From: an uncultured virus (IMG/VR IMGVR_UViG_3300028903_000005)
Taxonomy: Duplodnaviria; Heunggongvirae; Uroviricota; Caudoviricetes
DNA length: 20,000 nucleotides
Virus record (IMG/VR): IMGVR_UViG_3300028903_000005
Direction: 5' to 3' (one strand)
The position numbers and the translations under genes are program-made. This document shows, one piece after another, positions 342 through 19,217 of the stretch. A model generated the notes under the pieces. That model saw only the letters and a program-made list of their open reading frames with translations. It made no database searches and was not told where the DNA came from. Each line of letters opens with the position of its first letter. Position 1 is the first letter of the stretch.

Positions 342-1687
<1,346 letters not shown>

Positions 1688-1691
<4 letters not shown>

Positions 1692-2251
1692 ACCTCTTCC
1701 AATTTTGGCATCGTTGGAATCACTAACGAATCATACATTTTATTTTTTATAAGTATTTTAATAATGGTAGAATACCATATTGTTTCCTTTTTAATAAGTT
1801 TTTCTGCTAACACTTCTATTTGTTCTCTATTATTATTTACAATTTCTTTTGCTACTTCCAATGTAGAAATATATAATCTTCTCTTACACGGTTTATATGA
1901 TTGTGGATAACTTTTATATTTAGTTGTTTTTAATGTATTATATATCCAATCCAATTCAACACATGCGTTATTAAAATCCGCTTTTCCACCACAATTAAAA
2001 TAATATTCTTCTGTTCCACACAACAACATATCCTGATTAAATATTATAGATTGGGCGAGTGGGCCAGTGAGAAAGACAATAGCGCGCGCAAGTGGGGGGC
2101 CATCTGTATAACCTTCTAATTTACCCCAAGAATTTTTGCTTTGTTTAATAGTTACCCCGTTGAATTTTTGATTTAAAACAATAGCAGCAATAGCATGTCC
2201 GGATTCATGATATGCAGCACAACGGGTTTCGTAGAGTGGGCGTTTTAACAT
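1688..2251 (-). CDS. Stand-alone M41 (FtsH protease domain)-like zinc metallopeptidase, 187 aa
   Basis: AAYHESGHA zinc motif near the N-terminus, then L-x-G-x-x-A and G-x-x-D-F-x-x-A motifs and a C-terminal 'LAEKLIKKETI' helix as in the FtsH protease domain. ATG at 2251 has a TATA-like element about 25 nt upstream. No AAA domain. Confidence 0.75.
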
Positions 2252-2315
2252 TGTAAGTAGTATATGTTTTGATTGTATTAATAAGTTGTTGAAAAATAGG
2301 AAATTGTAATAATTT

Positions 2316-2729
2316 TTACTTACACTTCCCAACAATCTCTTCAAGTTCCTTTTCTTTATTGATCTTGTAAAGAATCTCTCTTTCAAATTTTTGTATAGCA
2401 CGATCTATAATAATATTATCTTGTTCCAGAGTTGTTTTGCGAATTATTTTACCACCAACATCGTGCATTGTGGTATCAATATAATATGCAGAATCACCAT
2501 CAAGATTATCTAATAACAATTTTAACGAATGTAACATAAAACATGAAGCCGCAATCGCTGTTGTTAAAAATAATGTTATATTTGACTTTAACTGAAATGT
2601 GATGATTGCTATTCCCACCCCTATTATAAAATAAAATAACCAATACAACGAAATATCTTCTTCTTTATCAATAGTTATTTCCCTAATATATATTATATAA
2701 TTTCCAACATTCTTTAATGGAGTAGACAT
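2316..2729 (-). CDS. Membrane protein with two TM helices, 137 aa
   Basis: Two hydrophobic segments followed by a charged C-terminus. Divergent promoter region at 2730-2805. Confidence 0.7.
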   Translation of the reverse strand: MSTPLKNVGNYIIYIREITIDKEEDISLYWLFYFIIGVGIAIITFQLKSNITLFLTTAIAASCFMLHSLKLLLDNLDGDSAYYIDTTMHDVGGKIIRKTTLEQDNIIIDRAIQKFEREILYKINKEKELEEIVGKCK

Positions 2730-2769
2730 AATTACACATATGCGTTACTTCTATTTAATCATTACACCC

Positions 2770-2782
2770 AAACCTTTAAATA
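2770..2782 (+). promoter_or_regulatory. BRE-TATA (aaacc-TTTAAATA), probably giving a leaderless transcript
   Basis: TATA box 23 nt upstream of ATG 2806. Confidence 0.55.
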
Positions 2783-2805
2783 CATCTTTCCTACTATTAT
2801 ATATT

Positions 2806-3225
2806 ATGGGATTAATTGATCGTTTATCATACACTCTCGACACTGTAAAGAAACAACGTGAAGAACAAGAACTAAAGCGCGCGCTCGCATTAAAAGAACT
2901 ACGCGATAAAGTTATTCCTATGTTCCAGAAATTAATTGATAAATACCACGCGGAAGTTAAATATCTTGATACTGATGCTTATGTATTCGTGGTAGAAAAC
3001 GGACGAGAACGCGGAATATATATTCCTTATACCACAGATGAAATCCATTTGGATCTTAAACTCGATACCTTTGTTCACGACTATACTTCGTCATCTAAAC
3101 ATAAGATGCGCGCTCGGTTGGAACAGGGGTTAAATAATATTGATAGCAATGCAAAGAAAGATGGGTTTTGGGAAAGGGATATTGATCTTAAGAGTTTTAA
3201 TACGAGTTTGAGCAGGAGACGTTAA
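2806..3225 (+). CDS. Hypothetical protein, 139 aa, ending FNTSLSRRR
   Basis: ORF 2740..3225. ATG 2806 preferred from TATA spacing. Confidence 0.75.
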   Translation: MGLIDRLSYTLDTVKKQREEQELKRALALKELRDKVIPMFQKLIDKYHAEVKYLDTDAYVFVVENGRERGIYIPYTTDEIHLDLKLDTFVHDYTSSSKHKMRARLEQGLNNIDSNAKKDGFWERDIDLKSFNTSLSRRR

Positions 3226-3561: not shown

Positions 3562-3828
3562 ATGACCAACTACGGACAAACTGCAAAAGAACTGGAAGAG
3601 GAATTTGAACGGGAAGAAGAACCTATCGAACAAGAATACATAAGGACATTCCCGAAGAAACACAGTAGTTTAATTCCACGTGTAAAAACCGGTGTTAAAC
3701 TTCCAAATACTATGGAATATATGGGTAGAATGGATTCGTTGAAAGTTAATATTCCACACTCTGATATTTATAACAAAGAATGGAGAAATTTTAATACTTC
3801 GTTGTTGGTAGGGAAGAAGAGGAAATAA
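3562..3828 (+). CDS. Hypothetical protein, 88 aa, acidic N-terminus, ending FNTSLLVGKKRK
   Basis: AGGAG RBS just upstream. Last gene of the plus-strand operon. Confidence 0.75.
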   Translation: MTNYGQTAKELEEEFEREEEPIEQEYIRTFPKKHSSLIPRVKTGVKLPNTMEYMGRMDSLKVNIPHSDIYNKEWRNFNTSLLVGKKRK

Positions 3829-4119: not shown

Positions 4120-7100
4120 TTACTTTCTCTTTTTCTTCTGTGGCAACGACGAAGGCAATGATATTGATCTAATGCCCGTGGTTGAAGATGACTTTTTAGT
4201 AATACCAATGTTGGGCATACTAAATGATGGCATTTGTATAGATGCTACTTTCTGTTGTACTGCACGCTGTGCAGGAACCACTTTAACGGGCTTTTGTTGC
4301 ACTTTAGTTGGTTTCTGTAATGAGAATGATGGTAATGATGAACCCGGGCCGCGTGTTACGTTGGAACCCCTTCTCAAAGCCTTTGTTACTGCTACTGCTG
4401 CCAAGACTGGGGTAAAGGGATATTCGAATTTTTCAACGTGTTTTTTGTATCTCTTTTTCTTATCCCTTATTCCGCCACTCCCGTACAAATTACCACCTGT
4501 GGGGAGAATCGGAATTGGCGATCCGGGACTCGGGGGTTTTGGTGTTGATGGTGGCAAACTGGTTGGAATGGAGGGAATAGATGGGGGAGAAATCTTTGTG
4601 CTTGAAGGTGTAGATGGTATATTAGGCATCGATGGGCTTCCCTCTTTCGGTGGAGATGGTGGTGAAAATATAGAAATTGATGGAACTATTGGAGAAACTA
4701 TTTTTGATACGGACGGTAGACTTATTTCTGAAACCGATGGTATAGAAGCAACAGATTTTAAAGAACCCAATGATGAAGAAAACCCCTTTGGTATTTCAGA
4801 AGATTCTTTTGAAACTGATTTGCTAATAGATTTTTCAATCGGTGATATATAACCACTCATATCTTTAGATAAACTCATCTCTTTGGATGGAGCAGATAAC
4901 ATTTCTGATGTAGCAATAACACTTTTTAATTTAGAATCGCTCGGTTTCAAACTACCAACACCCATTAATGGAGAATATTTTGGAATGGCGGTTGTAGATA
5001 AAGAACCAATGATTGATGCGCCAGACATCACGGGTATTCTTACAGATTTTACACCGGTTGATGAAGGCACAGACAAATCGATGTTAAATTTTCCACCAAC
5101 ATAGTTTTGTCTTACTTTTGTAGATGCATCCTTCCCCCATAAATCTAACCATTGTTCTAAATACACATCTGCTTTTGCTGCCTTTGCTCTAGTTAATGGA
5201 TTGGAAGATTTGCTCATTAATTCTATATTGCCCTTTTCTCCAATATAATAATCTCCTATATCTTTCATACGTCCTTCAAATCTAGGAGCAATTTTTCCAG
5301 TAACAGAAAATACTTCTGGCCCACCTTCATATCCTTTGCCAGTAACGGTTCTCGGTTCTGGAGTAATTTCCATTGCACCAGATGCCTTTCTCCCAATTTG
5401 TTCAGCATATGGCATTACTTCTAATCCTTCAGTAGTACTTACATATTTCTGTGGTTTCATACCAAGACCGAAATAACCCGAAGATGATCTAAATGGACTT
5501 GTTTCTTGCTTTAGTAATTTGTTGACGGTTGGATTTTCATTGTGTATATCAAATAATTTTCCACTTCCGTCTGACATTTCTACTGTGCCATCTTTAACAT
5601 AAACCACCTTTTTACCAGCGGCTTTATTTATAGCAGATGTAACATCTTGTGCATATGAATCCCCCATTGATTGTAAAGACGATGTTTTGGATGTTGTTAG
5701 TTTGCTCTTTATTCCTTCTATCAACGACAATTTTCCCGGTTGCCCTGCTTCAGAAGGTATCATAACATCAAGATCATTTGGATTGCGAAGCAATGTTGTA
5801 ACTCCACGTTCTATTCCAACCGCCTTCTGCCCAGCGGAACCATATAATTTTGCGCCATAATCAAGAGAAGTTTGTAAAATTGCTTCGGTAACTTCTGCCG
5901 AATTCGGGAATTTTCTTGCTTTTACAACTTCTCCTATCGCTGTAGATGCTTGATCATACTTTGCTCCGGAACCAGAAGTGATTTCATGGGTTTTATACAT
6001 CAAATCTAATTTTGGAGATTCTTCGGGTGCTATATATTTTTTACCAATGGCAACTTCCAATGGAGATTCCATCGCATACGTGGAACCCTCGGTTTTAAAT
6101 TTAAACATCTCTGCTGTTGGTTTTGGAATCCCAATATACACATTTTTTAGTGTGGATACGGCTTTAACAGCACCATATTTTAAATTCGGTAATAATTGTG
6201 GAGAAGTCGAAACATCTAATATAGCCCACTTCTCACCAGATGGTGAAACAACATTTTCTACATTTTTTAAATATAGTTTCGTTTCTGGTGCAACCACATA
6301 TTCTTCTTCTAATCCCAATCCTTTCCACGGCTTACCAGCAGCGGCACGAAGACCCGGATATAATTTACCCGGCGGTAATGTTGCTGCAACATCAGCAAAA
6401 TTCCTTCCATATGCTCCACTGCTCTTTATTTTACCCACGGCGCTAGCAAATTCCGGCGTGATTTCCGGAGTTGTTCTTAATCGCAATGCTACTTTTGTTC
6501 CGGTTTCACCAGCATACTGTTTAAGTATTGTACCCGGATCCCCAAAGAATAATGCACCTTCTTTTCCACCCTTTCCAACAACAACCTCTCCTGTGGTCAA
6601 GAGTTGATTTACAAATGCGTTTTCAGGAGTAACATGATAGAAATCCGATACTCCACCTTTAGCAAGAGTTGTATATCTTTGGGCTGCTTGACTAGCATCC
6701 GCAAAAGTATTCATCTTCGTAGTAAATGATATATCTTTTGCACTACCTTTTAAAAGGTTTGAACCAATAATAACATCGGTGGGAGAAGTTGTTTTTCCGC
6801 CTACACCAACCAAAGAAGATGTTAATTGTTCAATCTGTTTATCAGCACCAGATAATTTCGAAACGACAAGTGAAGTATATTTAGCAGTTGGTGTTTCCAT
6901 TCCTTTTGACGAAATTATTTCCGCGCGTTGCAATCCGATTCTATAAGGCTGTGCTTCATATAATTTTCCCCCACCCTTAAACAATAAATATTGACCAACC
7001 AATGAACCCGCAAACTTTGCTGGATTTGTTGTTGCTGATTGATACATCCCACCTGCTTGCATTGCAAGACCTGCTGTTGCCAATCCAGCAAATGTTGATG

Positions 7101-9066
7101 GATTACGCAATATTGTTTCTCCACCGACCAAAGCAGATTGCCCAAGTTGTGCTACCATTTCCGGGGTTGATGTTAAACCTGATATTACACCCCCGGGAAT
7201 ACCCCACCCAGATACAGCAGTTTCTATAGGTGCTTGAATATTAGCAGAATACCATTTTCCAACATCTCCAATATTAGAACCAAGTCCATACGTTAACAAT
7301 TTTGTTTGATCTACATTTCCCGTTAATGGAGATGCAGATTTGACATAATGGGATTCTGCTGTATCTATTTGCCCCTGCAATGTAGAAATTTTTCCATATT
7401 GCGTATCCAAATCTGTTTTCTGCGAGGTGAGGTTTTCATATTCTTTTTGCGTCGGTATAGCACTTTGTTTATTAAAAATATCCACGTTTTTACTATAAGT
7501 ATCAATTGAAGATTGTAAATTTTTTTGTTGTGATATTAAACTATCATATCCCTCTTGTGTTGGATTTGCTTTATAAGATTCGAGATTTTTATTATATATT
7601 TCCGATTTTAATTCTATATCTTTTTGTTGTGTCAACAAATTATCATAACCTTCTTGCATCTTATTTGCATTTATATTATATGAATTCATATTTTTATTAT
7701 ATGCAACCAAAGATTTTTCATAATCTGGCATAAGAGCATTAATTTTTTCTGTGTTTATAGAAGAAACCTTTTGATAATCATAATAAGATTCTGTTGCTGC
7801 ACCACCCTGTGATATTCCAGACAAAACATCACTAGCAACAGGCAATTTTGTTTCTGTTCCCAATTTGTACACAGATGATAAAACAGGAACTTCTCCCGAT
7901 GGAACTTTTGAACCAATATCATAAATATTACTTAATATTGGAGTGGCTTTTATAACATTTGAAACATCAGTGAATGTGGATGGGATATTTGTGCTTCCAA
8001 TAGTAGCATTTTGTGTTCCGGTCGGTCCCCCCTTATTAAAAACAACCGCGCTGCCCGGAACCACATATAATCCACCCGCCATCGGTTGACTTTTCATCGT
8101 AACATCGGGGCCAGTACCAGAAAATTGTGCAGGCATTGTAGTAACAACCGACCGTGGAACATTAGTTTCCCACGACGCCATTACGTTACCAACACTTTCC
8201 GGCGTAATACTCTTCACACCCGTCCCACCATACAAAGCACCATACGGCCCTTCGATACCTTCCGCCGCTTGCAAAGCCGCCAATCCCGGCATAAAATTAA
8301 CATTTTCGTTTTTACCTAATGCGGTATTCCATTGATGCTGTTGAACACCCATCGTTCCACCGGGTAAATATCTGGACATCTCCCCGCTAACAGGAGGAAA
8401 CACATCGGATCTGGTTATAGGAGCACCTTTCAACAACTCCACGGCAAGATCCGCTTGGTATTCATAAGGATTCGCCGCCACTGGTCTTCCCGTTTCTTTG
8501 GCCATATAATGATACTGGCTAGCTGCTTCTATCGGTTCTTGAATTGATTTAGTTAACTCATTTTCATAAAAACTTTTTGCCCTACTATCGGTTGCTGCTT
8601 GTCGTTGTTCTTCTAATGTATACCTCACAGCATCGTCATATGAACCGAATGGTTTGTTTGGTTGATTCATTAATTCTTTTGCGCGCGTTTGTGTTGCAGC
8701 ATCTCCCAATTCGGTTGAAGCATAATAACCGGGGCGCGTTTCCACAGCCCTATACATTGCTGGAGGCAACGCGGGGTGAACGTTAGTATCATAATCATAT
8801 TCTTGTGCTGCCGAAGGAGGAGTTGCCGTTTGAGCAGCAGCGATTCGTGCTACACTCGGATCTACAACACCTCCTGTTTTTCCAACCAATTGTGCAATTT
8901 CGGCAGCCGTGTTACCGGACATTGCGGGTTGTGGCGTGTCAACAGTGTGCGCGTTTGCTGGTGGACTACCACCACCCTCGTAAGTAATTTGACCGGTATA
9001 TGCAGATTGATAACCTATGATATTCCCACCAGAATCCCTAACAGCATATGAAGCATAAGATCCCAT
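4120..9066 (-). CDS. 1648-aa multidomain effector-like protein: coiled coil, Gly-rich hydrophobic helices, ADP-ribosyltransferase-like domain, AbiEii-like nucleotidyltransferase domain, Ser/Pro-rich basic tail
   Basis: GAGGTGA RBS. Motifs: DFYHVT (6628-6645), EEEYVV (6292-6309), LYGSAG (5830-5847), NDLDV (5764-5778), LFDIH (5542-5556), RMKDIGD (5251-5271). The ORF is certain; domain calls are by eye. Confidence 0.75.
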   Translation of the reverse strand: MGSYASYAVRDSGGNIIGYQSAYTGQITYEGGGSPPANAHTVDTPQPAMSGNTAAEIAQLVGKTGGVVDPSVARIAAAQTATPPSAAQEYDYDTNVHPALPPAMYRAVETRPGYYASTELGDAATQTRAKELMNQPNKPFGSYDDAVRYTLEEQRQAATDSRAKSFYENELTKSIQEPIEAASQYHYMAKETGRPVAANPYEYQADLAVELLKGAPITRSDVFPPVSGEMSRYLPGGTMGVQQHQWNTALGKNENVNFMPGLAALQAAEGIEGPYGALYGGTGVKSITPESVGNVMASWETNVPRSVVTTMPAQFSGTGPDVTMKSQPMAGGLYVVPGSAVVFNKGGPTGTQNATIGSTNIPSTFTDVSNVIKATPILSNIYDIGSKVPSGEVPVLSSVYKLGTETKLPVASDVLSGISQGGAATESYYDYQKVSSINTEKINALMPDYEKSLVAYNKNMNSYNINANKMQEGYDNLLTQQKDIELKSEIYNKNLESYKANPTQEGYDSLISQQKNLQSSIDTYSKNVDIFNKQSAIPTQKEYENLTSQKTDLDTQYGKISTLQGQIDTAESHYVKSASPLTGNVDQTKLLTYGLGSNIGDVGKWYSANIQAPIETAVSGWGIPGGVISGLTSTPEMVAQLGQSALVGGETILRNPSTFAGLATAGLAMQAGGMYQSATTNPAKFAGSLVGQYLLFKGGGKLYEAQPYRIGLQRAEIISSKGMETPTAKYTSLVVSKLSGADKQIEQLTSSLVGVGGKTTSPTDVIIGSNLLKGSAKDISFTTKMNTFADASQAAQRYTTLAKGGVSDFYHVTPENAFVNQLLTTGEVVVGKGGKEGALFFGDPGTILKQYAGETGTKVALRLRTTPEITPEFASAVGKIKSSGAYGRNFADVAATLPPGKLYPGLRAAAGKPWKGLGLEEEYVVAPETKLYLKNVENVVSPSGEKWAILDVSTSPQLLPNLKYGAVKAVSTLKNVYIGIPKPTAEMFKFKTEGSTYAMESPLEVAIGKKYIAPEESPKLDLMYKTHEITSGSGAKYDQASTAIGEVVKARKFPNSAEVTEAILQTSLDYGAKLYGSAGQKAVGIERGVTTLLRNPNDLDVMIPSEAGQPGKLSLIEGIKSKLTTSKTSSLQSMGDSYAQDVTSAINKAAGKKVVYVKDGTVEMSDGSGKLFDIHNENPTVNKLLKQETSPFRSSSGYFGLGMKPQKYVSTTEGLEVMPYAEQIGRKASGAMEITPEPRTVTGKGYEGGPEVFSVTGKIAPRFEGRMKDIGDYYIGEKGNIELMSKSSNPLTRAKAAKADVYLEQWLDLWGKDASTKVRQNYVGGKFNIDLSVPSSTGVKSVRIPVMSGASIIGSLSTTAIPKYSPLMGVGSLKPSDSKLKSVIATSEMLSAPSKEMSLSKDMSGYISPIEKSISKSVSKESSEIPKGFSSSLGSLKSVASIPSVSEISLPSVSKIVSPIVPSISIFSPPSPPKEGSPSMPNIPSTPSSTKISPPSIPSIPTSLPPSTPKPPSPGSPIPILPTGGNLYGSGGIRDKKKRYKKHVEKFEYPFTPVLAAVAVTKALRRGSNVTRGPGSSLPSFSLQKPTKVQQKPVKVVPAQRAVQQKVASIQMPSFSMPNIGITKKSSSTTGIRSISLPSSLPQKKKRK
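7417..7656 (-). repeat. Three degenerate coiled-coil repeats of about 33-36 aa (QEGYDNLLTQQK / QEGYDSLISQQK / QKEYENLTSQK)
   Basis: Visible in the translation of the 1648-aa ORF. Confidence 0.7.
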
Positions 9067-9069
9067 GTT

Positions 9070-9228
9070 TCACCTCTTCTTATTATTGTTATTTATTTTC
9101 GGTGCTGCTACTGCTTGCACAAGATATGCACCACCGCGCGCAGACTCACCGGGAATAATAACATTATTATATGTAGGAACATTCATATGCGATTCGACTA
9201 TCCTTGGGGCTACAACTGGAGGTAACAT
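9070..9228 (-). CDS. 52-aa protein missing from the ORF track (MLPPVVAPRI...KINNNNKKR)
   Basis: Translated by hand. AGGTG RBS and BRE-TATA (9263-9278) upstream. Its last codons form the RBS of the 1648-aa gene. Confidence 0.7.
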   Translation of the reverse strand: MLPPVVAPRIVESHMNVPTYNNVIIPGESARGGAYLVQAVAAPKINNNNKKR

Positions 9229-9262: not shown

Positions 9263-9278
9263 CTTTATAAATCTTTCT
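9263..9278 (-). promoter_or_regulatory. BRE-TATA (agaaaga-TTTATAAAG) driving the 52-aa and 1648-aa genes
   Basis: Consensus match in an intergenic gap, just after a T6 tract (9282-9287, minus strand) that may terminate the upstream unit. Confidence 0.6.
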
Positions 9279-9302: not shown

Positions 9303-10544
9303 TTAACTATATGGTTTCACTAACACGGGGGAGGGAGAACTATACCCCGTCTTATTTGCCCACACATAATAAAAGTGATCTGAAGTCAATCCTGTAAGTA
9401 CTGCAAGACCGCGTGTATTACTTGTTGCAGTAGATATAACCGATGTGGTTGTGTCTTGCGCGTAATACGTTGCACTTGAAATAGGGTTTCCATATAAACT
9501 ATCACGCACAATGCCAACAATACGAGTATTACTATATTGTGCCGTTGGGATTAATGGTATTGTTAAATTGATTGGGCCACTTGCTAACGGAGTAAATGTA
9601 TTAACATCTGATGCATATCCGCTTTTATTAGTCATAATTGTTAGTGGGACACCATAAGTTAAAGATGCACTATCCATATTAAAGGAGCCGTCTGCTGCCG
9701 ATGTTGCAGAATACACAATTCCGGATTGTGTAGCATTTATAACAGCACCCGATATTGCAGAAGACGTATATGCATCAACAACATATCCCATAGGTATAAC
9801 CGATGTTGAAGAAGAATCATATGTGATTTCTACGTAACCATATGCACCGTTCCCCCCGGGGCCGCCAAGAGCGAAGTGACCAGCAACCGGGCTACCAGCG
9901 CCCCCGCCTCCTCCTCCAGCACCATTACCAATTCCACCGGGTGAACCATATGATGTACGTAAATTATCCGATGTTGTTCCAGTAATACTATTCAATCCAC
10001 TATATGCAATTTGATAATTACCATAACCATTTGCACCTCTAGAAGAACTCCCCGAACTTAATGTTACAACATACCATCCGCCATCACCGGATGGGTAACT
10101 ATGCCAAGATATATATGGGGCAGCCCCGCCTTCAGCAATATAACCAAATGCAGAAGAATTTCCTCCGGGTTCCCCATAATAATAATATTGAATGCCATCT
10201 GTTCCCACTAAATATTTACCATCAACCCCTATACCCGGTTTTCCAACTATTATAGAATAAGATTGCCCCGGAGTAACAGGAATATTGCTTTGTGTTACGT
10301 ATGTACCAGCATTGCCACCAGCCCCATTCCCAGATCCAATAAAACCACCAACTTGATTATAAACCCAATAATATCCACCAACCCCCCCGGATCCACCACC
10401 AATCATTTTTATTGATACAGTGGTCACATCAGAAGGGCATGTCCATATACCATCTTGCGTAAACGAAACTGTTTGTGAAACAGCTAAAGAGGGGGTTACT
10501 AATAATATTGTTGCTAATAGTAAAACAATATATTTGAAATTCAT
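9303..10544 (-). CDS. Secreted glycine-rich fibre/adhesin-like protein with two C-terminal carboxypeptidase-regulatory-like beta-sandwiches, about 413 aa
   Basis: Sec signal (MNFKYIVLLLATILLVTPSLA). 'FTQDGIWTCPSDVTTVSIKMIGGGSGG...GGNGAYGYVEITY' is the Gly-rich domain pattern of viral fibre proteins. Two 'G-x-V-x-D...PI-x-x-A' type repeats. ATGA overlap with the upstream gene. Confidence 0.75.
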   Translation of the reverse strand: MNFKYIVLLLATILLVTPSLAVSQTVSFTQDGIWTCPSDVTTVSIKMIGGGSGGVGGYYWVYNQVGGFIGSGNGAGGNAGTYVTQSNIPVTPGQSYSIIVGKPGIGVDGKYLVGTDGIQYYYYGEPGGNSSAFGYIAEGGAAPYISWHSYPSGDGGWYVVTLSSGSSSRGANGYGNYQIAYSGLNSITGTTSDNLRTSYGSPGGIGNGAGGGGGGAGSPVAGHFALGGPGGNGAYGYVEITYDSSSTSVIPMGYVVDAYTSSAISGAVINATQSGIVYSATSAADGSFNMDSASLTYGVPLTIMTNKSGYASDVNTFTPLASGPINLTIPLIPTAQYSNTRIVGIVRDSLYGNPISSATYYAQDTTTSVISTATSNTRGLAVLTGLTSDHFYYVWANKTGYSSPSPVLVKPYS

Positions 10545-10840
10545 AATCCAAACCACCCAAGTATAGTTTCTATAATGCCTTTGTTATTTTTACTCACGGT
10601 GATCATTTCGACATAATTTTCATATCTCACCATATATGTATCATTGTCTGGAAAAGATAATAATAAATTCCCGTTTTGTGGAATATCTGATGTATATAAA
10701 TATGTTACATTGAAAGTAGAGGGCACGGATATGTATTGTTCTCCACCGTAAGTAATACTCACCAATTTATAATCTTCTGCTAACACGGGGGATATAACTA
10801 AACATGTTAGAAACATTAATATTAATATTTTTTCTTTCAT
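10541..10840 (-). CDS. Small secreted protein, 99 aa
   Basis: Signal peptide MKEKILILMFLTCLVISPVLA. AAGGTG RBS favours ATG 10840. TATA-like element at 10875-10889. Confidence 0.7.
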   Translation of the reverse strand: MKEKILILMFLTCLVISPVLAEDYKLVSITYGGEQYISVPSTFNVTYLYTSDIPQNGNLLLSFPDNDTYMVRYENYVEMITVSKNNKGIIETILGWFGL

Positions 10841-10897
10841 TTCAAACACCTTTATATATGATAATAGTTTTAAGTATTAAAAGGTTTTGGTTGTTTA

Positions 10898-11356
10898 TTA
10901 TACATTCTTAAACATTGACATTACTATACCAGTGATTGAAGCTAGCAAAGCCCCGAATGCAAGGGGCTGAATAACAACCGGCATTGTAATTCCAATCCCA
11001 TCGGAAAATAAGAATGCACCCGCGAGTAGGAGACCTGTGATAGATGCAAGTCTCAAGTTAGCATGTGATAGCCACATCCCGATGTAGATGAAGAAAAAAA
11101 TTAAAAATGAGGGAACAGATAAGCTGCCCATTGTTGTCCACGCATAGGGGGAAAGAGCGTTTTGTGGGAATGTTATAATAGAGAAGTTGGAGGAGGTAAG
11201 ATTATCAAAGGCTTTACCATACGTTGTAACTTCTAAAGGTGTAATCGTGGGTGTGGGAGTAATAGTTATATACGGAGGCGAATCTGCTTTCACCAACCCG
11301 ACAATACTACCAAGCGCGCATAATGTTGGAATTATTTTAGAGATAATAGTATCCAT
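10898..11356 (-). CDS. Membrane protein (signal peptide, Thr/Pro linker, three TM helices), 152 aa
   Basis: GGTGA RBS and hydropathy pattern. Confidence 0.8.
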   Translation of the reverse strand: MDTIISKIIPTLCALGSIVGLVKADSPPYITITPTPTITPLEVTTYGKAFDNLTSSNFSIITFPQNALSPYAWTTMGSLSVPSFLIFFFIYIGMWLSHANLRLASITGLLLAGAFLFSDGIGITMPVVIQPLAFGALLASITGIVMSMFKNV

Positions 11357-11360
11357 TATT

Positions 11361-11645
11361 TCACCACCCGCTGTCTGTATCGTATGAAGTTACTCGGCTG
11401 GCCTCGTGCCACAAGCGTACGATAATAAATATTTCACATAATATAATTAAAACCCATACTAAACTCATCATCCAGATTATAGAATCACCCGATAGTGCAT
11501 TCCACCAATAGGGGGGAGTCATGCTCTTAAACAAAGGAACCACCTTCGAAAACAACGTCCCAAATATAATAGTATAAATCCCCAATGCCAACGTAACTAC
11601 CAGCATCGAAATACCTGCTATTAACATCCTACCCGCCGATGCCAT
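11361..11645 (-). CDS. Small two-helix hydrophobic protein, 94 aa, candidate virion envelope/capsid protein
   Basis: GGGGTGA RBS, TAATG overlap with the upstream gene, two hydrophobic helices. Confidence 0.75.
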   Translation of the reverse strand: MASAGRMLIAGISMLVVTLALGIYTIIFGTLFSKVVPLFKSMTPPYWWNALSGDSIIWMMSLVWVLIILCEIFIIVRLWHEASRVTSYDTDSGW

Positions 11646-11812
11646 TAAATATTCACCCCTTTATTTTGTGGAAACATCACAGCAACCGAAACGACTACCA
11701 TAATGGCTCCCCCAACCCATGTTCCAACCAAAGTCCAATCTGTTGCATATATCATACCAACCGCGCATATTATAATTCCCATAATTAAAAATATCAAACC
11801 CATTGTATTCAT
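11645..11812 (-). CDS. 55-aa two-helix hydrophobic protein missing from the ORF track (MNTMGLIFLIMGIIICAVGMIYATDWTLVGTWVGGAIMVVVSVAVMFPQNKGVNI)
   Basis: Translated by hand. ATGA overlap at its start and TAATG overlap at its stop fill the gap exactly. Confidence 0.8.
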   Translation of the reverse strand: MNTMGLIFLIMGIIICAVGMIYATDWTLVGTWVGGAIMVVVSVAVMFPQNKGVNI

Positions 11813-12066
11813 GTCTGTCGGCTCCTATCTCTTTTTGATTCGACAATCAAATTATACCCAGATGCTATCAGGAATAATATTCCCAACACATAAAAACACA
11901 TCGTCAATAAATGAAATGTGTTCATGGAATCCTGCGTAGTTAGACCCAACGAATTTAAATTATTCATTGTGGCTCCAAGCATATCCCACGCCTTTCCTAT
12001 TGCTATACATATTACCCCCCACGCAAAAAGATTAATGATAAAACCTTGCATTGCACCAGCCGACAT
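11809..12066 (-). CDS. Small two-helix hydrophobic protein, 85 aa, candidate virion envelope/capsid protein
   Basis: ATG 12066 lies 2 nt after the upstream stop, with a GGAGG RBS. Two hydrophobic helices. Confidence 0.75.
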   Translation of the reverse strand: MSAGAMQGFIINLFAWGVICIAIGKAWDMLGATMNNLNSLGLTTQDSMNTFHLLTMCFYVLGILFLIASGYNLIVESKRDRSRQT

Positions 12067-12068
12067 GA

Positions 12069-12959
12069 TTAAAGCCTCCCATCGCCCGGCATCGGTTTCC
12101 AAACATATCTATATAATGCTAATATATAAATAACCCATATTCCAACTTGTAACATTGCAACTAACGTCATCGCTTGCATGGAATCTTTGATCCACGGGTA
12201 TGTTTGTAAAAGCACTGTGGCAAAGAACGCTACCGAAACCAACAAATTGACAATTAGTACCAGTAGGTTCCAACCCATCGATACAACAGTTGATAAGATA
12301 TTAAACGACTGCCCCAGAATATTTTCGGTTCCGCTAGTGGTTTTAATGTTCGTCAACATCAAGTTCCCGTTGATAGCACAATTTTCATAAGTGACGGAGC
12401 CACTTGCACATTCTTGTGGAGTTGCAATGGTTGCACCGGGTTCCGTAAATATACCCGTCCCGTTGATCAACCCAATCGATGACTGCATGAGTAGAATAAA
12501 TACCAATATATTAATTAATGGATCTCCGGCTCCATTTATTCCGAATTGCATCCGTTTCTTTTCGGTCATATAAAGTATAACTGCAAGCACGGCGCACATT
12601 ATAATCAACCCCCATTCCCCGCCGGGATTATTTGGGGTTGTAAACCATTTCACCCAAGCGCAAAATGCGGATATCCCCACACCAATAATACAGAATTGTG
12701 CCGAAGAAGGTTCGTCTGCTACCCACGCTAACCACATTACAAGTGCTATAGAAATGATATTATAGTAAAACGCTGCTTGTGTTGCTGTAACGCCGGGAAT
12801 ATTTTGGATACCCAAATCGATTAAATATCCACCGGCCCCAGACATTGATGCAGCAGCACCAGCAAAAACCTGACTGACACTTGTTGCAGACACCGAAGCC
12901 ACAAGCAACGAAAATGATGACATTAATAATGCCAATCGCCTTTTCAAAGACATCATCAT
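12069..12959 (-). CDS. Polytopic membrane protein with signal peptide, about 296 aa
   Basis: ATGA overlap with the adhesin stop, N-terminal signal peptide, about six hydrophobic segments. Confidence 0.85.
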   Translation of the reverse strand: MMMSLKRRLALLMSSFSLLVASVSATSVSQVFAGAAASMSGAGGYLIDLGIQNIPGVTATQAAFYYNIISIALVMWLAWVADEPSSAQFCIIGVGISAFCAWVKWFTTPNNPGGEWGLIIMCAVLAVILYMTEKKRMQFGINGAGDPLINILVFILLMQSSIGLINGTGIFTEPGATIATPQECASGSVTYENCAINGNLMLTNIKTTSGTENILGQSFNILSTVVSMGWNLLVLIVNLLVSVAFFATVLLQTYPWIKDSMQAMTLVAMLQVGIWVIYILALYRYVWKPMPGDGRL

Positions 12960-15900
12960 ACATCCCTCGTGTAGTTGCCCCATACTAAATAATTCTTACC
13001 CCTTACATTTGGAACCGTATAATTCAATTGATAAATATTTCCAGCAACGGGCGAAGTAACATTTGTTATATATACCATCGTATCTAAATCAACATCCTTC
13101 AAATAGAAATCCACCCGTGTTGTCAAGCTCGTCATATCTTGGAATGACCACCAGAATGTAACATTAGATGGATCTGGTTCCGTGGCCCAAACTTTCGTAT
13201 TACCATTTGCATACAAATCATCCCATATATTATCTGTGGCAACAGTGGTTAAAAATCTGAATTGATATTGTGAATCCTGTGGATATATCGAATAATAATT
13301 TGTTTCCCCATTATATGTTATAGCAATATCATATTTTAAAGCACTGAGCATCGTAAATACTATAGATCCCTGATAATCCGTAGAACCAGACATCAACAAT
13401 GTTCCATTCAACGCCTCATTCGCTACATTTACATTCATTCCATAATTGCTAATTAAATCAGATACCCCGTTTGGCAACGTGGTTTCATTAAAACGAGCAT
13501 TAACAGAAGCGCCTCTCACTTGATTTCCATATGCATCTACAAACGAAATCACAATTGTTTTGGGAGTATACCACGTGGTGGAAACAGATGATGCAACTTG
13601 TGTTAAATAAATCGTTTGTATTAAATCTCCACTTATAAGATATGTAGCACGATTGTTATAATAATCGGTAGCGTTTGCTGTAAATGTATGCTGACCCGTA
13701 GAATATGAACCCGAAAATATACCATTTCCGTAGGAAGTGAGTTCGTTCCCCATCTCATCTGATACAGCGGCATGTGTAATTAAATTACCACTCGTGGCAT
13801 CTTTAATATACAATGTCACTATATTATTTGTATTTGTTAAAATTACATCTTGTCGCCCATTAGCAGCCACCCCACCGACACTTATATATGCACTTCTCAA
13901 TTTTGAACTTTCTCCGTAATCAGTAGTTGTTGTAAAGTTAACACTGTATGTTCCAGCATTCGAATAAGTATGAGAGGGATTTTGTGATGTAGAAGTAAGA
14001 CCGTCTCCGAATGTCCAGTACCACGACGATGGGGTTGCATTAATATATGTGGATGTATCAGTAAATTGAACATATAGTGGATAATCACCCGCTGTAACAT
14101 TGGCGGTAAAATTAGCAGTAACCGATCCGCCTAAAACGGTAACAGCCGATGTTGTATTTGCCCACGAAATAATTGATCCGTTCATTATTCTATGATTAAC
14201 ATCAAATGTGCCGATGGTTGTATATGTGTGGGTAGTATTTTTATCCGTTGATGTTGCACCATCTCCAAATTCCCAATAATAACTATCTGGGAGAAGCCCC
14301 GAATATGTTTCATTGAAAGTTACTAATAATGGGGCTACACCAGATGATGGCGATAATGTTGTAACAACGGTTGCTGCACCTTCAATCAACCACACGTTCA
14401 TCTGTAAACTTGGATCTAAACTGGATGAATTTGCCTGACCATTGCTGCTGAACAGGTAAGTGTTGGTGCCGGGAACTATGGTTTGGGTGATGCCATTGAG
14501 AGATGTGGTGTTGAGGGTGGCATTGATTGATAGGTATTGGAACTCTACGTTGTTTATAGCACTGGTTGAATATGTCTGGATATAAAATGTTGCGGAATTT
14601 GGAGTGAACGACCCTGTTAATGGTTTCCATCCCGCTCCTGTAGTCGTTCCTCTGACAAACTCAGTCCACGTCACACCATCCAAACTCCAATTATAGATGC
14701 GTGGTTGCGAATCTCCCCAATAATTTGTAGACAAATATACCTGTTCTGCCGGTAACATTGTGTTTACTTTAATTACTATTGGCTTGTTCGTAGCAAGATG
14801 CGAACCCAGGCCACCCCAACCTGCGATTATAAACGGATTTGTATACCCCGCTCTTGTGGATTGTGTTGTTGAATATACAGCGGGTGCAAACGCCAATCCC
14901 CCGGCAGTTGTTGAAACATCGGATGACCAGTTATAATACCCCTTGTCCAGATCCACTATCGCCCCACTCAATAACCCTGTTGCATCATTCGTACTTATAT
15001 TTAGGTTTACACCATTGACGGTGATGGAGGCAGATTCGGTGGATTTTGCGAAGTACTGGATATATGATGCGGTATCCATATCATTAGACGTTCCTGCCTT
15101 CAGAGTTGGTGTGCCTGTTGTGGTGCTGGAAATAACGTGGAAGTGATAATTCCCAGAGGTCCATAGTGCTGGTACTTGGATTGTATTAACCCCCGTTACC
15201 GGAGTGAACGTATTTGATGACACGGTATTATTTGATGCGTCGTGAACCAACATTGTCCATGTTGCAGCAGTACCAGTCGCCACGCAATAAATTGAGATAT
15301 TTGTTATGTGGTTTTTTGTCGGTGTGAATGCTTGCCATCCGGTTGCAGTCTCACTAACGGTTGTACCAAGCGCATAGGTATTTGTAGCAGCCCATCCTGA
15401 ATCGAGAAACTGATCAATATTATCGGTACTCGTTACACCCTGCACAACCGGCTTGACTATCTTGGCTGTTAATTGTGTATCGGTAACGACTTCTTCAAGG
15501 GTGATGTCGTCAAACCAAACACTCCCGGATTCTTTGGTGACCCCCAAATTATCAACCCAATATACGGCAGTACTCCCTGTAGTAAACGTAGAATTGTAGG
15601 GAGTCCAATCCCGTGTCCCGGTTAACCCACTAAAAATGGTAATTTCTGATAATACAGTGTTTGAGGAATCCATTACTAGCCCAAGAATTGTAGCCCCTCC
15701 CCCATATGTATTCGATACGCTATCTGTTTTTACCCAAGCACTATATTTATATACAGTACTGGGTTTTAGTGGAACAATATGAGATTTCCATGTTGGAATG
15801 CTCCAACCTGGATTATTTTCAGAAATGTATCCATAAGCACCCGAATTCGCGGTAGGTATATAAAATTTCATAGATTTTGTACCAGTGTGGGATTGATTGG

Positions 15901-16126
15901 CATCATATAATATCTCACCGACAAATCCATGTAGATCGTACCACCCGTAATTTTCAGAGCCGACCCACCCACTCGCAGTAGCAGTTCCCGTCCCCGTTTC
16001 AAACCCCCCGTTAAATACCCCGCCTTTTGAGGCGGTATAATTGAGTTGGGTGGATGCCTGTACTCCGCCAACGCACAGCCCGAGAAGGAGCAGCGTGATA
16101 AAGATTCGTTTGTAAGTCTGTTTCAT
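12956..16126 (-). CDS. Secreted adhesin/receptor-binding glycoprotein: CBM4/9-like domain, beta-rich region, two PKD domains, C-terminal beta domains, about 1056 aa
   Basis: GAGGTGG RBS before MKQTYKR and a Sec signal. 'NGGFETG...WFDDITLEE' carbohydrate-binding pattern. Two PKD signatures (WEFGDG, WTFGDG...HTY...G-x-Y/F-x-V). Many N-x-S/T sequons. Confidence 0.85.
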   Translation of the reverse strand: MKQTYKRIFITLLLLGLCVGGVQASTQLNYTASKGGVFNGGFETGTGTATASGWVGSENYGWYDLHGFVGEILYDANQSHTGTKSMKFYIPTANSGAYGYISENNPGWSIPTWKSHIVPLKPSTVYKYSAWVKTDSVSNTYGGGATILGLVMDSSNTVLSEITIFSGLTGTRDWTPYNSTFTTGSTAVYWVDNLGVTKESGSVWFDDITLEEVVTDTQLTAKIVKPVVQGVTSTDNIDQFLDSGWAATNTYALGTTVSETATGWQAFTPTKNHITNISIYCVATGTAATWTMLVHDASNNTVSSNTFTPVTGVNTIQVPALWTSGNYHFHVISSTTTGTPTLKAGTSNDMDTASYIQYFAKSTESASITVNGVNLNISTNDATGLLSGAIVDLDKGYYNWSSDVSTTAGGLAFAPAVYSTTQSTRAGYTNPFIIAGWGGLGSHLATNKPIVIKVNTMLPAEQVYLSTNYWGDSQPRIYNWSLDGVTWTEFVRGTTTGAGWKPLTGSFTPNSATFYIQTYSTSAINNVEFQYLSINATLNTTSLNGITQTIVPGTNTYLFSSNGQANSSSLDPSLQMNVWLIEGAATVVTTLSPSSGVAPLLVTFNETYSGLLPDSYYWEFGDGATSTDKNTTHTYTTIGTFDVNHRIMNGSIISWANTTSAVTVLGGSVTANFTANVTAGDYPLYVQFTDTSTYINATPSSWYWTFGDGLTSTSQNPSHTYSNAGTYSVNFTTTTDYGESSKLRSAYISVGGVAANGRQDVILTNTNNIVTLYIKDATSGNLITHAAVSDEMGNELTSYGNGIFSGSYSTGQHTFTANATDYYNNRATYLISGDLIQTIYLTQVASSVSTTWYTPKTIVISFVDAYGNQVRGASVNARFNETTLPNGVSDLISNYGMNVNVANEALNGTLLMSGSTDYQGSIVFTMLSALKYDIAITYNGETNYYSIYPQDSQYQFRFLTTVATDNIWDDLYANGNTKVWATEPDPSNVTFWWSFQDMTSLTTRVDFYLKDVDLDTMVYITNVTSPVAGNIYQLNYTVPNVRGKNYLVWGNYTRDV

Positions 16127-16152
16127 GCGGCCACCTCGTATGATCCCGATAT

Positions 16153-16242
16153 TCACAATTCAGCAGTATAACCAGACGGCAGAGTCCCGAACTGGCTGAA
16201 TTTAATCGTCGGAGTTGCCTCCGTATAATCAATATTATTCAT
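16153..16242 (-). CDS. Possible 29-aa microprotein (MNNIDYTEATPTIKFSQFGTLPSGYTAEL)
   Basis: ATG directly abuts the upstream TAG, with GGAGG upstream. Very short, so uncertain. Confidence 0.35.
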   Translation of the reverse strand: MNNIDYTEATPTIKFSQFGTLPSGYTAEL

Positions 16243-16529: not shown

Positions 16530-16685
16530 ATGAAGATACAACCCAACGAACAAACTCCAGAAGGGTATTATAGATGTGTTAAATGTAATTATATTTGGCG
16601 CGCGCGCATAAAACCTCCGGCACAACCGGTTTCATGTCCAGATTGTAAAAGCAGATCTTGGATGAATGTGGAGAAACAAGCATGA
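16530..16685 (+). CDS. Zinc-ribbon microprotein, 51 aa
   Basis: CVKC...W...P..CPDCKS..W motif. ATG 23 nt after the TATA box. Confidence 0.8.
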   Translation: MKIQPNEQTPEGYYRCVKCNYIWRARIKPPAQPVSCPDCKSRSWMNVEKQA

Positions 16686-16909
16686 CGCGCATCAAACTCT
16701 CACTTCGTCTCGGAACCGTTGGAGGTATTATTTGGGGTCTACTCTTCACTGCTTACTACTCTATGCTCCCATATCTTATGATATCGCAAGCAAAACGTTT
16801 TGAATTTGCATGGAAAAGTGCTTCAATTTGTTTTGCTGCACTCATCATATTAATTCTTGCATTACCATATGTCATTGAAGCATTTAAAAACGGAGCAAAA
16901 AAACAATGA
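16682..16909 (+). CDS. Two-TM membrane protein, 75 aa
   Basis: ATGA overlaps at both ends and two hydrophobic helices. Confidence 0.75.
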   Translation: MTRIKLSLRLGTVGGIIWGLLFTAYYSMLPYLMISQAKRFEFAWKSASICFAALIILILALPYVIEAFKNGAKKQ

Positions 16910-18513: not shown

Positions 18514-18709
18514 TAACAAATTTTTTGATCTATATACGATTGGGAGTTTTATATCGATATTTGGATCTTCGATGTTGTTATTTACCGGATTATTATTTAC
18601 ATATATAGACAACAGATATATACCACTATCCCCATTATTTATCGTTCCCACACTAATTACAATTATCGGTATTATCATAATGTATATGAGTGGTAAATAT
18701 TATGATTGA
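18506..18709 (+). CDS. Two-TM membrane protein, 67 aa
   Basis: AGGAGG RBS before a TTG start. Overlaps both neighbours. Confidence 0.7.
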   Translation: MNNNKFFDLYTIGSFISIFGSSMLLFTGLLFTYIDNRYIPLSPLFIVPTLITIIGIIIMYMSGKYYD

Positions 18710-19217
18710 TCACGTCCATGCTGCTGCATACGTTGGTGTCATTTCAACACTGATTTATTTAATTCCCCTTTGTTATTGGGATATTAAATACCGGGCGATT
18801 CCCAAATGGTCGCTTACCCCACTAATAATCATCAATGTTCCATGTCTGGCAATTCTATACACAAATGGGTTGCCTCTTGGTTATATAGCATTATCCGGTT
18901 TATTAACCCTATTGTTCATATGCTTATTTGCTGTGAAATGCTATAGCGGAGCAGACGCGCGGTTCCTGATATTAATATCGTGGTTCTGCGTACTCAATCC
19001 AATTAACCCACTAGATAGCACAAATATATTTCAATTGATGTTTGCAATATTTTTGGCAACAACATCCGTGTTATGGATGATTTATGTTTATTTCTATAAC
19101 CGGAGGGTTGGAAATAAAGGGTTGTCACTATGGCAGAAATTTAACAACTATCCACGCGGGTCGCCATGGATGATTCCAATCACCTGTGCGTTTATTTTAA
19201 CGGTGGTGTTTGCATAA
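18702..19217 (+). CDS. A24-family (prepilin/preflagellin-type) aspartic peptidase, 171 aa
   Basis: Polytopic, with catalytic-type motifs WDIKYRAIP and SGAD (GxxD) and a C-terminal 'PWMIPIT' as in PibD/FlaK-like proteins. Confidence 0.8.
   Translation: MIDHVHAAAYVGVISTLIYLIPLCYWDIKYRAIPKWSLTPLIIINVPCLAILYTNGLPLGYIALSGLLTLLFICLFAVKCYSGADARFLILISWFCVLNPINPLDSTNIFQLMFAIFLATTSVLWMIYVYFYNRRVGNKGLSLWQKFNNYPRGSPWMIPITCAFILTVVFA

Follow-up and report, generated by a model that had tools for sequence, protein, structure and literature searches.

To our knowledge, host takeover by spindle-shaped and other non-tailed archaeal viruses is hardly understood at all. Phage T4 packages an ADP-ribosyltransferase (ART), Alt. 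The polyvalent proteins of phages are large, virion-embedded, multidomain proteins in which ART is the commonest modifying enzyme, and they are thought to enter the host together with the DNA (PMC9503650). Two tailed haloarchaeal viruses are also reported to have ARTs (PMC8651126). In the gene table of the pletoitzamnavirus PBV150 (PMC9894754, Supplementary Table 10), NrdD, a helicase, an ATV-like capsid protein, a glycosyltransferase and an AAA+ ATPase are followed by a 742-amino acid (aa) 'Nucleotidyltransferase, Poly(A) polymerase' (HHsearch PF19244, probability 91.4), and beyond it come a His1-like capsid protein and an adhesin. The locus described here lies in a 20,000-nucleotide stretch (the window) of the uncultured virus record IMGVR_UViG_3300028903_000005 of IMG/VR, and its central feature is a gene for a 1648-aa protein, P0001, in which a predicted ART domain is followed by a predicted nucleotidyltransferase (NTase) domain. 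In our reading, P0001 is the large hallmark protein of a virus-type element that has integrated, one most likely akin to the spindle-shaped viruses of archaea.

Two predicted enzyme domains in one protein

The gene is a single open reading frame (ORF) on the minus strand, read from 9066 to 4120 with no stop, and a Shine-Dalgarno-like GAGGTGA stands five bases before its ATG. The translation contains FYHVT at aa 809 (nt 6628-6642), LFFG at aa 839 and EEEYVV at aa 920 (nt 6292-6309); in the NTase half these are followed by LYGSA at aa 1074, NDLDV at aa 1097 and LFDIH at aa 1171, and further on by QIGRK at aa 1223, GRMKDIGD at aa 1265 and, at the C-terminal end, KKKRK at aa 1644. A sequence-only reading of this DNA, made earlier by a model, had listed the ORF and these motifs, and all of them were found in their places when the translation was read. 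Given their conservation among the members of the family, we regard the motifs as more than chance.

The ART domain was modelled with AlphaFold2 on an 8-row alignment of homologues, which gave a mean predicted local distance difference test (pLDDT) of 82.7 and a predicted template modelling score (pTM) of 0.82. When the model was searched with VIA, 97 of 48,161 chains matched at a Z of at least 2. The best was Tre1 (6drh_B; Z 8.5, root-mean-square deviation (rmsd) 3.5, 97 residues aligned), followed by ExoS, SpvB, XopAI, Vis, C2-I and VIP2, and ranks 1-41 were ART toxins or ART-fold enzymes except for one unclassified nuclear magnetic resonance entry. A second look returned 136 chains at a Z of at least 5, and the best 50 of these 136 were all ART folds. 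H811, T813, G837, F/Y840 and E922 are invariant in the nine members that have the domain, and E920 is found in eight of them. The residues of catalytic type fall on model strands 38-44, 69-72 and 153-156; these are the strands on which ARTs bear their NAD-site residues. The His/aromatic/Glu set appears intact. According to the model, then, aa 771-965 have the ART superfamily fold with an H...F/Y...E set, and the domain looks catalytically competent, with NAD+-dependent transfer as its predicted activity. The structure check that was run on the ART-like domain proposed from the letters thus bore that proposal out, through the modelled fold, the match to Tre1 and the invariance of H811 and E922. 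The R-S-E clade (C3, Iota and cholera type) was ruled out, since all nine members have His for Arg and GAL[FY]F for S-T-S. At the level of motifs we take the domain to be nearer the His-Tyr-Glu type.

The model of the second domain was obtained with AlphaFold on a 53-row alignment covering aa ~960-1335 (pLDDT 86.2, pTM 0.85). In the VIA search the poly(A) synthases of Mimivirus and Megavirus came first (Z 8.4 and 8.2), and after them an NTase-like fungal protein (6.5), JHP933 (5.9-6.2), ANT(2'') (5.6-5.8), TglT (5.1-5.4), MenT1 (5.3), MenT3 (5.1), MenT4 (5.1), and then Cid1 and Pol beta; LnuA and CCA enzymes were present too, and nearly all rows were NTases of the Pol-beta superfamily. Conservation was counted over 133 distinct domain sequences. 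G1076 is kept in 123 of 125, S1077 in 125/125, D1098 and D1100 in 126/126 each, D1173 in 129/129 and K1227 in 129/130. The GS, DxD and third Asp fit strand 114-116, helix 118-128, strand 140-144 and strand 213-217 of the model. On this modelling, aa 966-1332 belong to the Pol-beta-type NTase superfamily with GS/DxD/D, and the domain looks catalytically competent, its activity being predicted. Of the two things that the sequence-only reading had said about this region, the Pol-beta NTase fold was recovered in the structure check, with a near-invariant GS/DxD/D, while the label 'AbiEii-like' fell: none of 30 domains has such a match in Pfam, and MenT and JHP933 reach Z 5-6 versus 8.2-8.4 for the poly(A) synthases. 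The order of the motifs, GS / RxPxDxD / D / K / RxKDxxD, is one that we take to resemble AbiEii/MenT. The assignment was left at the superfamily: nothing favours AbiEii/MenT over a type like the poly(A) synthases, and Pfam has no match to either. No Pfam family of an AbiEi/MenA-type antitoxin was found next to the gene or elsewhere among the 18 ORFs of the window.

Modules and their exchange among relatives

The relatives of P0001 share its parts in different combinations. In blastp comparisons the matches of P0004, P0007, P0008, P0009 and P0010 to P0001 are limited to two stretches, 350-500 residues at the N-terminus (45-81%) and the final 140-280 residues (30-58%), and their centres are unrelated. 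At the N-terminus the matches include P0004 over aa 1-499 (68%), P0007 over aa 120-388 (81%) and P0009 over aa 1-346 (57%), and at the C-terminus P0007 over aa 1487-1648 (58%) and P0009 over aa 1507-1647 (43%). P0002 has a different N-terminus and matches aa 331-1648 (73%), and P0003, P0005, P0006 and P0013 match the centre only. A hidden Markov model (HMM) of the NTase, run with all filters off, had no significant match in the five relatives with other centres; P0007 gave a sub-threshold alignment at its GS...DVDV and KDIYDF motifs (E 0.057 in the five-sequence search). These comparisons indicate that two predicted effector domains stand in one large protein and that domains are shuffled among relatives that share a module. 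The earlier suggestion to test whether homologues swap the enzyme domains and keep the N-terminal and hydrophobic regions was borne out for the centre and the N-terminal part, and the C-terminal part proved to be kept as well; the hydrophobic helices were not confirmed.

The ART domain itself appears to be an inserted cassette, because in P0014, P0016 and P0018 the match covers the connector up to about aa 777, then breaks off and starts again at aa 965. P0014 matches aa 703-797 and then from aa 977 on, and P0018 matches aa 704-777 and then from aa 965 on. The ART HMM is present in nine distinct proteins among the 154 collected.

The same module borders are seen in DNA from elsewhere. Contigs of four other public runs depart from the window at 8021-8085 and 4445-4465 and continue with unlike sequence, and these break points are the borders found at the protein level. 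The breaks are to be taken as a hint and not as a count, and contig depth along the gene cannot rank its parts. The flanks of the gene outside 8021-8085 and 4445-4465 are covered by more contigs than the centre, which fits co-occurring alleles with common ends. At the C-terminus, a motif P[IV]x[TS][PL]xEhhG following a basic run is found in 52 of 86 family members and in two others among 1045 proteins.

The remaining parts of P0001 are of biased composition. Across aa ~1340-1535 the Ser/Pro/Thr fraction is 0.38-0.62. Between aa ~430 and 590 there are two imperfect repeats (YNKN...EGYD[NS]L..QQK), and a crude heptad count puts hydrophobic residues at 6-8 of the 8 a/d positions; the 'coiled-coil repeats' of the sequence-only reading accordingly stand as repeats with a heptad-compatible pattern; the coiled coil, with that crude count as its support, is putative. 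In agreement with the same reading, the N-terminus has no hydrophobic stretch that would make a signal peptide. Gly and Ala make up 28-34% of aa 590-705, the region that had been described as 'hydrophobic helices', and the Kyte-Doolittle mean nowhere in it reaches 1.5. No 19-residue window at a mean of at least 1.5 exists in the whole protein, the maximum being 1.34, inside the Ser/Pro region; the idea that the protein inserts into membranes is therefore unsupported, the hydrophobic segment it calls for having not been found. The centres of P0008 and P0010 have, instead of enzyme domains, about five tandem repeats of ~45 residues (GSL.YL.EKGI.F..PS.ED..RL.RA....IF..KTEGG).

Other scans were unremarkable. 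The tandem-repeat scan found short chance arrays only, the scan for bacterial-type promoters and terminators stayed at the level of shuffled sequence, no tRNA gene was found in the window, and aa 1-450 had no usable match in the ESM Atlas. The features are collected in Table 1.

Table 1. Positions, strands and evidence for the features of the locus (BRE, TFIIB recognition element)
Feature	Positions	Strand	Evidence
Gene for the 1648-aa multidomain protein P0001	4120..9066	(-)	ORF translation
Predicted ART-fold domain, aa 771-965 (H811, T813, F840, E920, E922)	6172..6756	(-)	Model, structure search, conservation
Predicted Pol-beta-type NTase with helical C-terminal part, aa 966-1332 (G1076-S1077, D1098, D1100, D1173, K1227, R1266, K1268, D1269)	5071..6171	(-)	Model, structure search, conservation
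N-terminal module, aa 1-330, common to relatives with another centre	8077..9066	(-)	blastp
N/Q/K/Y-rich heptad-like repeat region, aa 430-590, putative coiled coil	7297..7779	(-)	Heptad count, two imperfect repeats
Gly/Ala-rich segment, aa 591-703, no predicted membrane span	6958..7296	(-)	Gly/Ala fraction 0.28-0.34
Conserved connector, aa 704-770 (YEAQPYRIGLQRAEI...)	6757..6957	(-)	blastp; abuts the NTase in ART-less relatives
Ser/Pro/Thr-rich low-complexity linker, aa 1333-1535	4462..5070	(-)	Composition; similar linker after the NTase in most of the family
Basic C-terminal module, aa 1536-1648 (KKKRYK...FEYPFTP...KKKRK)	4120..4461	(-)	blastp, common to relatives with other centres
Putative promoter, TATA/BRE-like AAAGATTTATAAAG	9263..9276	(-)	Read directly, ~200 bases upstream of the 1648-aa gene
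Upstream genes, same strand	9303..16156	(-)	Collinear with G003:C3

Distribution of the family

A word-indexed search retrieved 10 relatives of P0001. An exhaustive phmmer search with aa 780-1340 extended these to 58 representatives, 52 of them at E<=1e-10 and 15 at E<=1e-30; nearly all match the second, NTase-like half, and the ART-like half is covered by six of the 58. The NTase HMM was found in 147 of the 154 collected proteins, and a scan of metagenomes gave 105 relatives, of which 80 were kept. By these searches, the NTase domain defines a family of large proteins. Pfam had no family for any of 30 homologues. Three family members searched by tblastn against a phage collection, and one against plasmids, had no match, and a scan of IMG/VR with P0010 found no locus. 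Two loci, L058 and L095, lie on one metagenome contig of 45,217 bases, where two diverged copies of the whole ~20-kb module with large proteins of 1068 and 1095 aa stand in succession; this could reflect two related genomes in tandem, a concatemer or a chimeric assembly.

Gene neighbours and a probable link to spindle-shaped viruses

Gene for gene, the window is collinear with part of G003:C3, a 138,951-base contig of a metagenome-assembled genome (MAG) labelled 'archaeon'. One end of the block in G003:C3 is made up of genes for a DUF3821 protein and an A24 peptidase-like protein together with a TnpB-type gene, beyond which ordinary cellular genes follow. Its other side has a resolvase, an MT-A70 methylase and a thymidylate synthase besides many small ORFs. 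In a Thermoplasmatales contig (L011/L012, G001:C1) a relative sits inside a block that has Cdc6 and a tyrosine integrase at its borders, beside FtsZ and ribosomal genes. On the evidence of sequence, the G003:C3 and G001:C1 elements are integrated mobile elements, and across the integrated elements the large protein is the sole gene common at the blastp level. The G001:C1 element also encodes a resolvase, a C39-like peptidase and ASCH and DUF5131 proteins. It adjoins cellular genes (GPI, FtsZ, Spt5, L11), giving a clean right-hand border of an integrated element.

Clustering of the neighbours placed about 30 of 84 loci in one fixed gene order around the family gene. The order begins with a ~110-aa two-helix protein, a ~480-aa GT87-like membrane protein and five small or mid-size genes, continues with a ~240-aa AAA+ ATPase (phrog_5484, E 6e-36), the large protein and ~90-aa hydrophobic proteins, and ends with a ~1000-aa CarboxypepD_reg adhesin, a 125-aa protein and LamG/DUF2341 proteins. 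In gene order and sizes this module matches the structural arm of the spindle-shaped itzamnaviruses of ANME-1 (anaerobic methanotrophic) archaea, as far as the PBV150 table sets it out. A tape measure protein of a tailed virus was considered for the large protein and dropped, the neighbours being the GT87-like membrane protein, the AAA+ ATPase, membrane proteins and adhesins. No portal, terminase, HK97 capsid or tail gene was found in the window with Pfam or PHROGs.

A profile named F4, built on the 125-aa gene that follows the adhesin in the itzamnavirus-like loci, matches the 304-aa multi-helix membrane protein of the window (12069-12983, minus strand; E 2.4e-6). This membrane protein is the only other gene that ties the module of the window to the itzamnavirus-like module, and most other module profiles had no match in the window, G1, G2 or G3. 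The 97-, 94- and 83-aa proteins of the window have two hydrophobic helices each. A Foldseek search of BFVD with the NTase model found two viral look-alikes at E<=0.001, A0A5P9U643, a viral protein of 1041 aa (E 1.1e-9, probability 1.0, template modelling score 0.50), and A0A514K2U2, a 1125-aa protein of a Nitrosopumilus spindle-shaped virus annotated 'IgA FC receptor' (E 1.1e-4, probability 0.98). The protein-primed polymerase (PF03175) was not found in G001-G003. With the loci assigned by synteny, the large NTase protein and the F4-like protein are, at the level of homology, the morphogenetic-module genes shared with spindle-shaped viruses, and we think it somewhat more likely than not that the element in the window is itself a virus of the spindle-shaped kind. 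What had been read as a viral context is thus upheld as that of a virus-type element, on collinearity, module order and the PBV150 table.

The block upstream of the large gene (Table 1) encodes a PKD adhesin-like protein of 1066 aa, the 304-aa membrane protein, small two-helix membrane proteins of 97, 55 and 94 aa, proteins of 152 and 102 aa, and a Gly-rich/CarboxypepD_reg secreted protein of 417 aa. On the other side, a 449-aa protein (342-1691, plus strand) contains 13 consecutive Asp residues and stretches rich in Lys and Glu, and its C-terminal half is rich in Pro and Gln; it shares 57% identity with a protein of G003:C3 and has no family match. The proteins at 2740-3225, 3562-3828, 4120-9066, 9070-9228 and 342-1691 have short basic tails (FNTSLSRRR, FNTSLLVGKKRK, SSLPQKKKRK, KINNNNKKR and KLKNRKI), which may be a common DNA-binding or sorting tail. 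A 237-aa protein (1688-2401, minus strand) matches Peptidase_M41 (FtsH type, E 4e-8) over the C-terminal protease part only and has an HESGH motif and no ATPase domain; it is 66% identical in G003:C3 and is a candidate processing protease. The block closes with a trio of genes at positions 16658-19217 (plus strand), which encode a two-helix membrane protein of 83 aa, a DUF3821 protein of 535 aa and an A24 (prepilin-peptidase-like) protein of 175 aa. The trio is kept in the G003:C3 element (64-75% identity), and a virus-borne leader peptidase is unusual. The open-ended ORF at 19587-20000 (plus strand) starts with MILTYKIKHNRDF and had no Pfam match over its 138 residues; we take it to resemble the start of a TnpB/IS605 OrfB-type protein. 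The G003:C3 element bears its TnpB-type gene near the same end.

Habitat and host

Family members are found on contigs labelled Methanoregula, Methanoculleus, Methanosarcinales, Halobacteriales and Thermoplasmatales, and three are on short contigs binned with bacteria. The MAG of the sister element, G003, has 1.1 Mb and is labelled 'archaeon'. The 30 genomes nearest to it are all of 0.3-1.4 Mb, and the large-protein family occurs in one of the 31 genomes around G003. The methanogen marker mcrA (PF02249) had no match in G001-G003, which are incomplete MAGs. Near-identical DNA was found in metagenomes of activated sludge, landfill, groundwater, wastewater and manure, with 20 matches in 15 studies, two of them possibly the source; no RNA sample was confirmed among these runs, the RNA-Seq library labels of four being a guess. 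On habitat, methanogens are plausible candidate hosts.

Proposed function and alternative explanations

Our preferred reading, held tentatively, is that P0001 may be a virion-borne carrier that delivers the ART and the NTase into the host at entry; in it we infer the packaging, the delivery, the substrates and the benefit. The protein would be built as an address plus cargo, in which the N-terminal ~330-aa and basic C-terminal ~110-aa modules are kept, a Ser/Pro stretch acts as a tether and the centre is exchangeable. Incorporated in the particle through its conserved ends, it would reach the cell interior together with the DNA, where the ART would use NAD+ to ADP-ribosylate a host macromolecule. 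The acceptor of the nucleotides added by the NTase would be the 3' end of an RNA or DNA, or some other molecule; host takeover could be aided or defence blunted as the outcome. Delivery of both enzymes is proposed on the conserved ends, the replaceable centre, the Ser/Pro tether, the basic tail with its family motif and the place of the gene among particle genes.

Several results weigh against this proposal. Packaging in the virion we infer from a single line of evidence, the position in the structural gene block. As for that block, the small membrane proteins of the window did not match the capsid-type profiles F15, F19 and F22 in hhalign, run with two-sequence query profiles, and the AAA+ ATPase profile had no match in the window or in 60 kb of G003:C3. 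The 742-aa NTase of PBV150 (gp23) is a probable homologue of the family by gene order and sizes only, as given in the PBV150 table. In the scans of IMG/VR one locus had the NTase, and the family is thus nearly absent from that catalogue. The enzyme domains have their own difficulties. The whole protein matched no family in Pfam or PHROGs and nothing in the PDB by sequence; a PDB search with the A2 family profile returned low-complexity matches to the Ser/Pro region only; and 30 isolated domain sequences searched in Pfam at E<=5 gave chance-level rows only, with neither AbiEii/MenT nor Poly_A_pol_cat among them. With Foldseek, neither model had a PDB match at E<=0.001. Short of that threshold, the list for the ART model consists of ART toxins from the top, with C3larvin (E 2.6e-3) first and Plx2A, Iota Ia, CDTa, VIP2 and ExoS next; the list for the NTase model, weak but one-sided too, is headed by CdnE (E 5.4e-3), with JHP933, MenT4, TglT and MenT1 after it. 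Single structural scores are middling, a Z near 8, such as the best matches reached, is possible by chance, and both folds are argued from the consistency of the hit lists together with the motifs. The R-x-K-D motif of the NTase (GRxKDIxD) is present in 130/130 sequences, a count that is partly circular because this motif was the retrieval pattern for the loci.

The main rival explanation, which we consider possible but doubtful, is that P0001 is an intracellular viral enzyme that is not packaged. Its NTase would tail RNA, repair or modify tRNA 3' ends or process viral DNA ends, its ART would modify host proteins after expression, and the long remaining parts would serve localisation or regulation. 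The template-independent poly(A) synthases of giant viruses, which are the best structural matches of the NTase (Z 8.2-8.4), speak for such a role, as does the conservation of the NTase throughout the family, expected of a core enzymatic function. The annotations available point the same way, the probable homologue being called 'Poly(A) polymerase' (HHsearch probability 91.4) in the PBV150 table (PMC9894754) and 'NT, tRNA nucleotidyltransferase' being listed among predicted methanogen-virus genes in a figure legend (PMC9796341). However, close relatives swap the whole enzymatic centre and keep the ends, a pattern that a carrier with cargo fits better than an essential enzyme of replication or expression does, and the gene stands among capsid-type and adhesin-type genes, outside the enzymatic arm.

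That position beside capsid-type genes, which is conserved, would also suit a protein with a mainly structural or assembly role (tail, plug or scaffold) and enzyme-like domains that are accessory or inactive. The size of P0001, its heptad-like repeats, Gly/Ala-rich segment and Ser/Pro tether, and the C-terminal motif of 52/86 members, which suggests a binding partner, are in keeping with this role. We nevertheless judge it unlikely, since the near-invariant catalytic residues of both domains speak for activity, and, for the tape-measure version, the neighbours are not portal, terminase or HK97 capsid genes. The element could also be an integrative plasmid or a vesicle-borne element and not a virus, with the large protein as a component of transfer or of the surface. 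Related elements do have integrase, resolvase and Cdc6 genes, hhalign found no capsid-protein homology for the small membrane proteins of the window, and the family yielded one IMG/VR locus and, for three members, no match in the phage collection. Against this stand the homology of the hallmark gene and the F4-like protein to a module that was assigned to spindle-shaped viruses by its capsid proteins, and the structural look-alike in an isolated spindle-shaped virus, so that we hold a non-viral element to be quite improbable. Least likely of all is a toxin for maintenance of the element, superinfection exclusion or abortive infection, in which an AbiEii/MenT-type NTase and an ART toxin would be neutralised by a neighbouring gene: MenT1, MenT3, MenT4, TglT and JHP933 are among the structural matches (Z 4.9-6.2), the closest ART structure, Tre1, is a toxin with an immunity partner, and the order of motifs is one that we presume to resemble AbiEii/MenT, but neither the gene nor its neighbours have an AbiEii/AbiEi match in Pfam, a fusion in a 1648-aa protein within a structural block is unlike toxin-antitoxin pairs, and the 70-aa gene downstream, with 81% identity to its counterpart in the G003 element, is kept there beside a large protein without the ART domain and is thus probably not an ART-specific immunity gene.

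The carrier reading can be widened into a claim that we put forward only as a conjecture, and a doubtful one. Large NTase proteins could be an unrecognised hallmark of spindle-shaped and related archaeal viruses, spanning thaumarchaeal, ANME-1, methanogen-habitat, halophile and Thermoplasmatales elements, and could serve in them as virion-borne carriers with a swappable effector bay. The allele in the window would then be the first injected ART and NTase pair in a non-tailed archaeal virus, and an independent invention of the polyvalent strategy of phages.

Significance

The conserved giant NTase protein can serve as a family-wide marker for such viruses in metagenomes, where 105 loci were retrieved that virus catalogues had mostly missed. 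P0001 is a candidate entry-stage effector, and the residues defined in both enzyme domains are targets that can be mutated. An ART that comes as a cassette and a centre that can be swapped point to an arms race in archaea akin to those of phage polyvalent proteins and bacterial polymorphic toxins, and the setting, in anaerobic digesters, landfills and sediments, bears on methane cycling.

Multi-enzyme viral effector proteins and the ART and NTase folds are already known. The family had been annotated once, in a supplementary table (PMC9894754), and perhaps a second time in a figure legend (PMC9796341). Consequently the statement of the sequence-only reading that no equivalent had been described was too strong, a probable homologue being tabulated, undiscussed, in Supplementary Table 10 of PMC9894754. 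What appears to be new is the breadth of the family, the address-plus-cargo build, the ART cassette and the tandem of ART and NTase in a non-tailed archaeal virus-type element; this judgement is provisional, the main methanogen-virus compendium and some supplements lying outside the literature check.

Comparison with known systems

With respect to PBV150, whose table (PMC9894754) is an annotation without analysis, L054 and about 30 other loci encode NTase relatives of the window protein (28-29% identity, E ~1e-30) in a PBV150-like order and with PBV150-like gene sizes. The large proteins of these loci differ from P0001 in having 700-1100 aa and no ART domain, and the module of the window differs from that of PBV150 in gene order and in that the ATPase was not detected. 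The protein of the Nitrosopumilus spindle-shaped virus and A0A5P9U643 are, like P0001, large and matched by the NTase model, a likeness that is structural only.

Taken singly, each predicted enzyme has relatives of other kinds. The polyadenylate synthases of Mimivirus and Megavirus (4wse and 4p37) align with the NTase over 152-153 residues at an rmsd of 3.8-4.1 (Z 8.4 and 8.2); the identity is 13-14%, hmmscan finds no Poly_A_pol_cat match, and the likeness extends to the catalytic core only. AbiEii, MenT and JHP933 (DUF1814) have in common with it a Pol-beta core and a helical C-terminal part (146-177 residues aligned, Z 4.9-6.2). They differ in the lower Z, an rmsd of 5-8 A, the lack of a Pfam match and of a detected antitoxin partner, and the fusion of the domain in a giant protein here. 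The ART toxins Tre1, ExoS, SpvB, C2-I/Iota/CDTa and VIP2 share the fold of the ART domain (Z 6-8.5) and a Glu-x-Glu ahead of the strand, which here starts at E922, whereas the domain differs from them in that a first-strand His replaces Arg and G-A-L-F/Y-F replaces S-T-S.

In overall build, the nearest parallel is offered by the polyvalent proteins of phages and conjugative elements, which also combine several effector enzymes in one large protein and shuffle their domains (PMC9503650). Those proteins come from bacterial tailed phages and plasmids, while the virus type is different here and packaging is putative. By this analogy, P0001 looks like an archaeal counterpart of the multi-enzyme proteins of phages.

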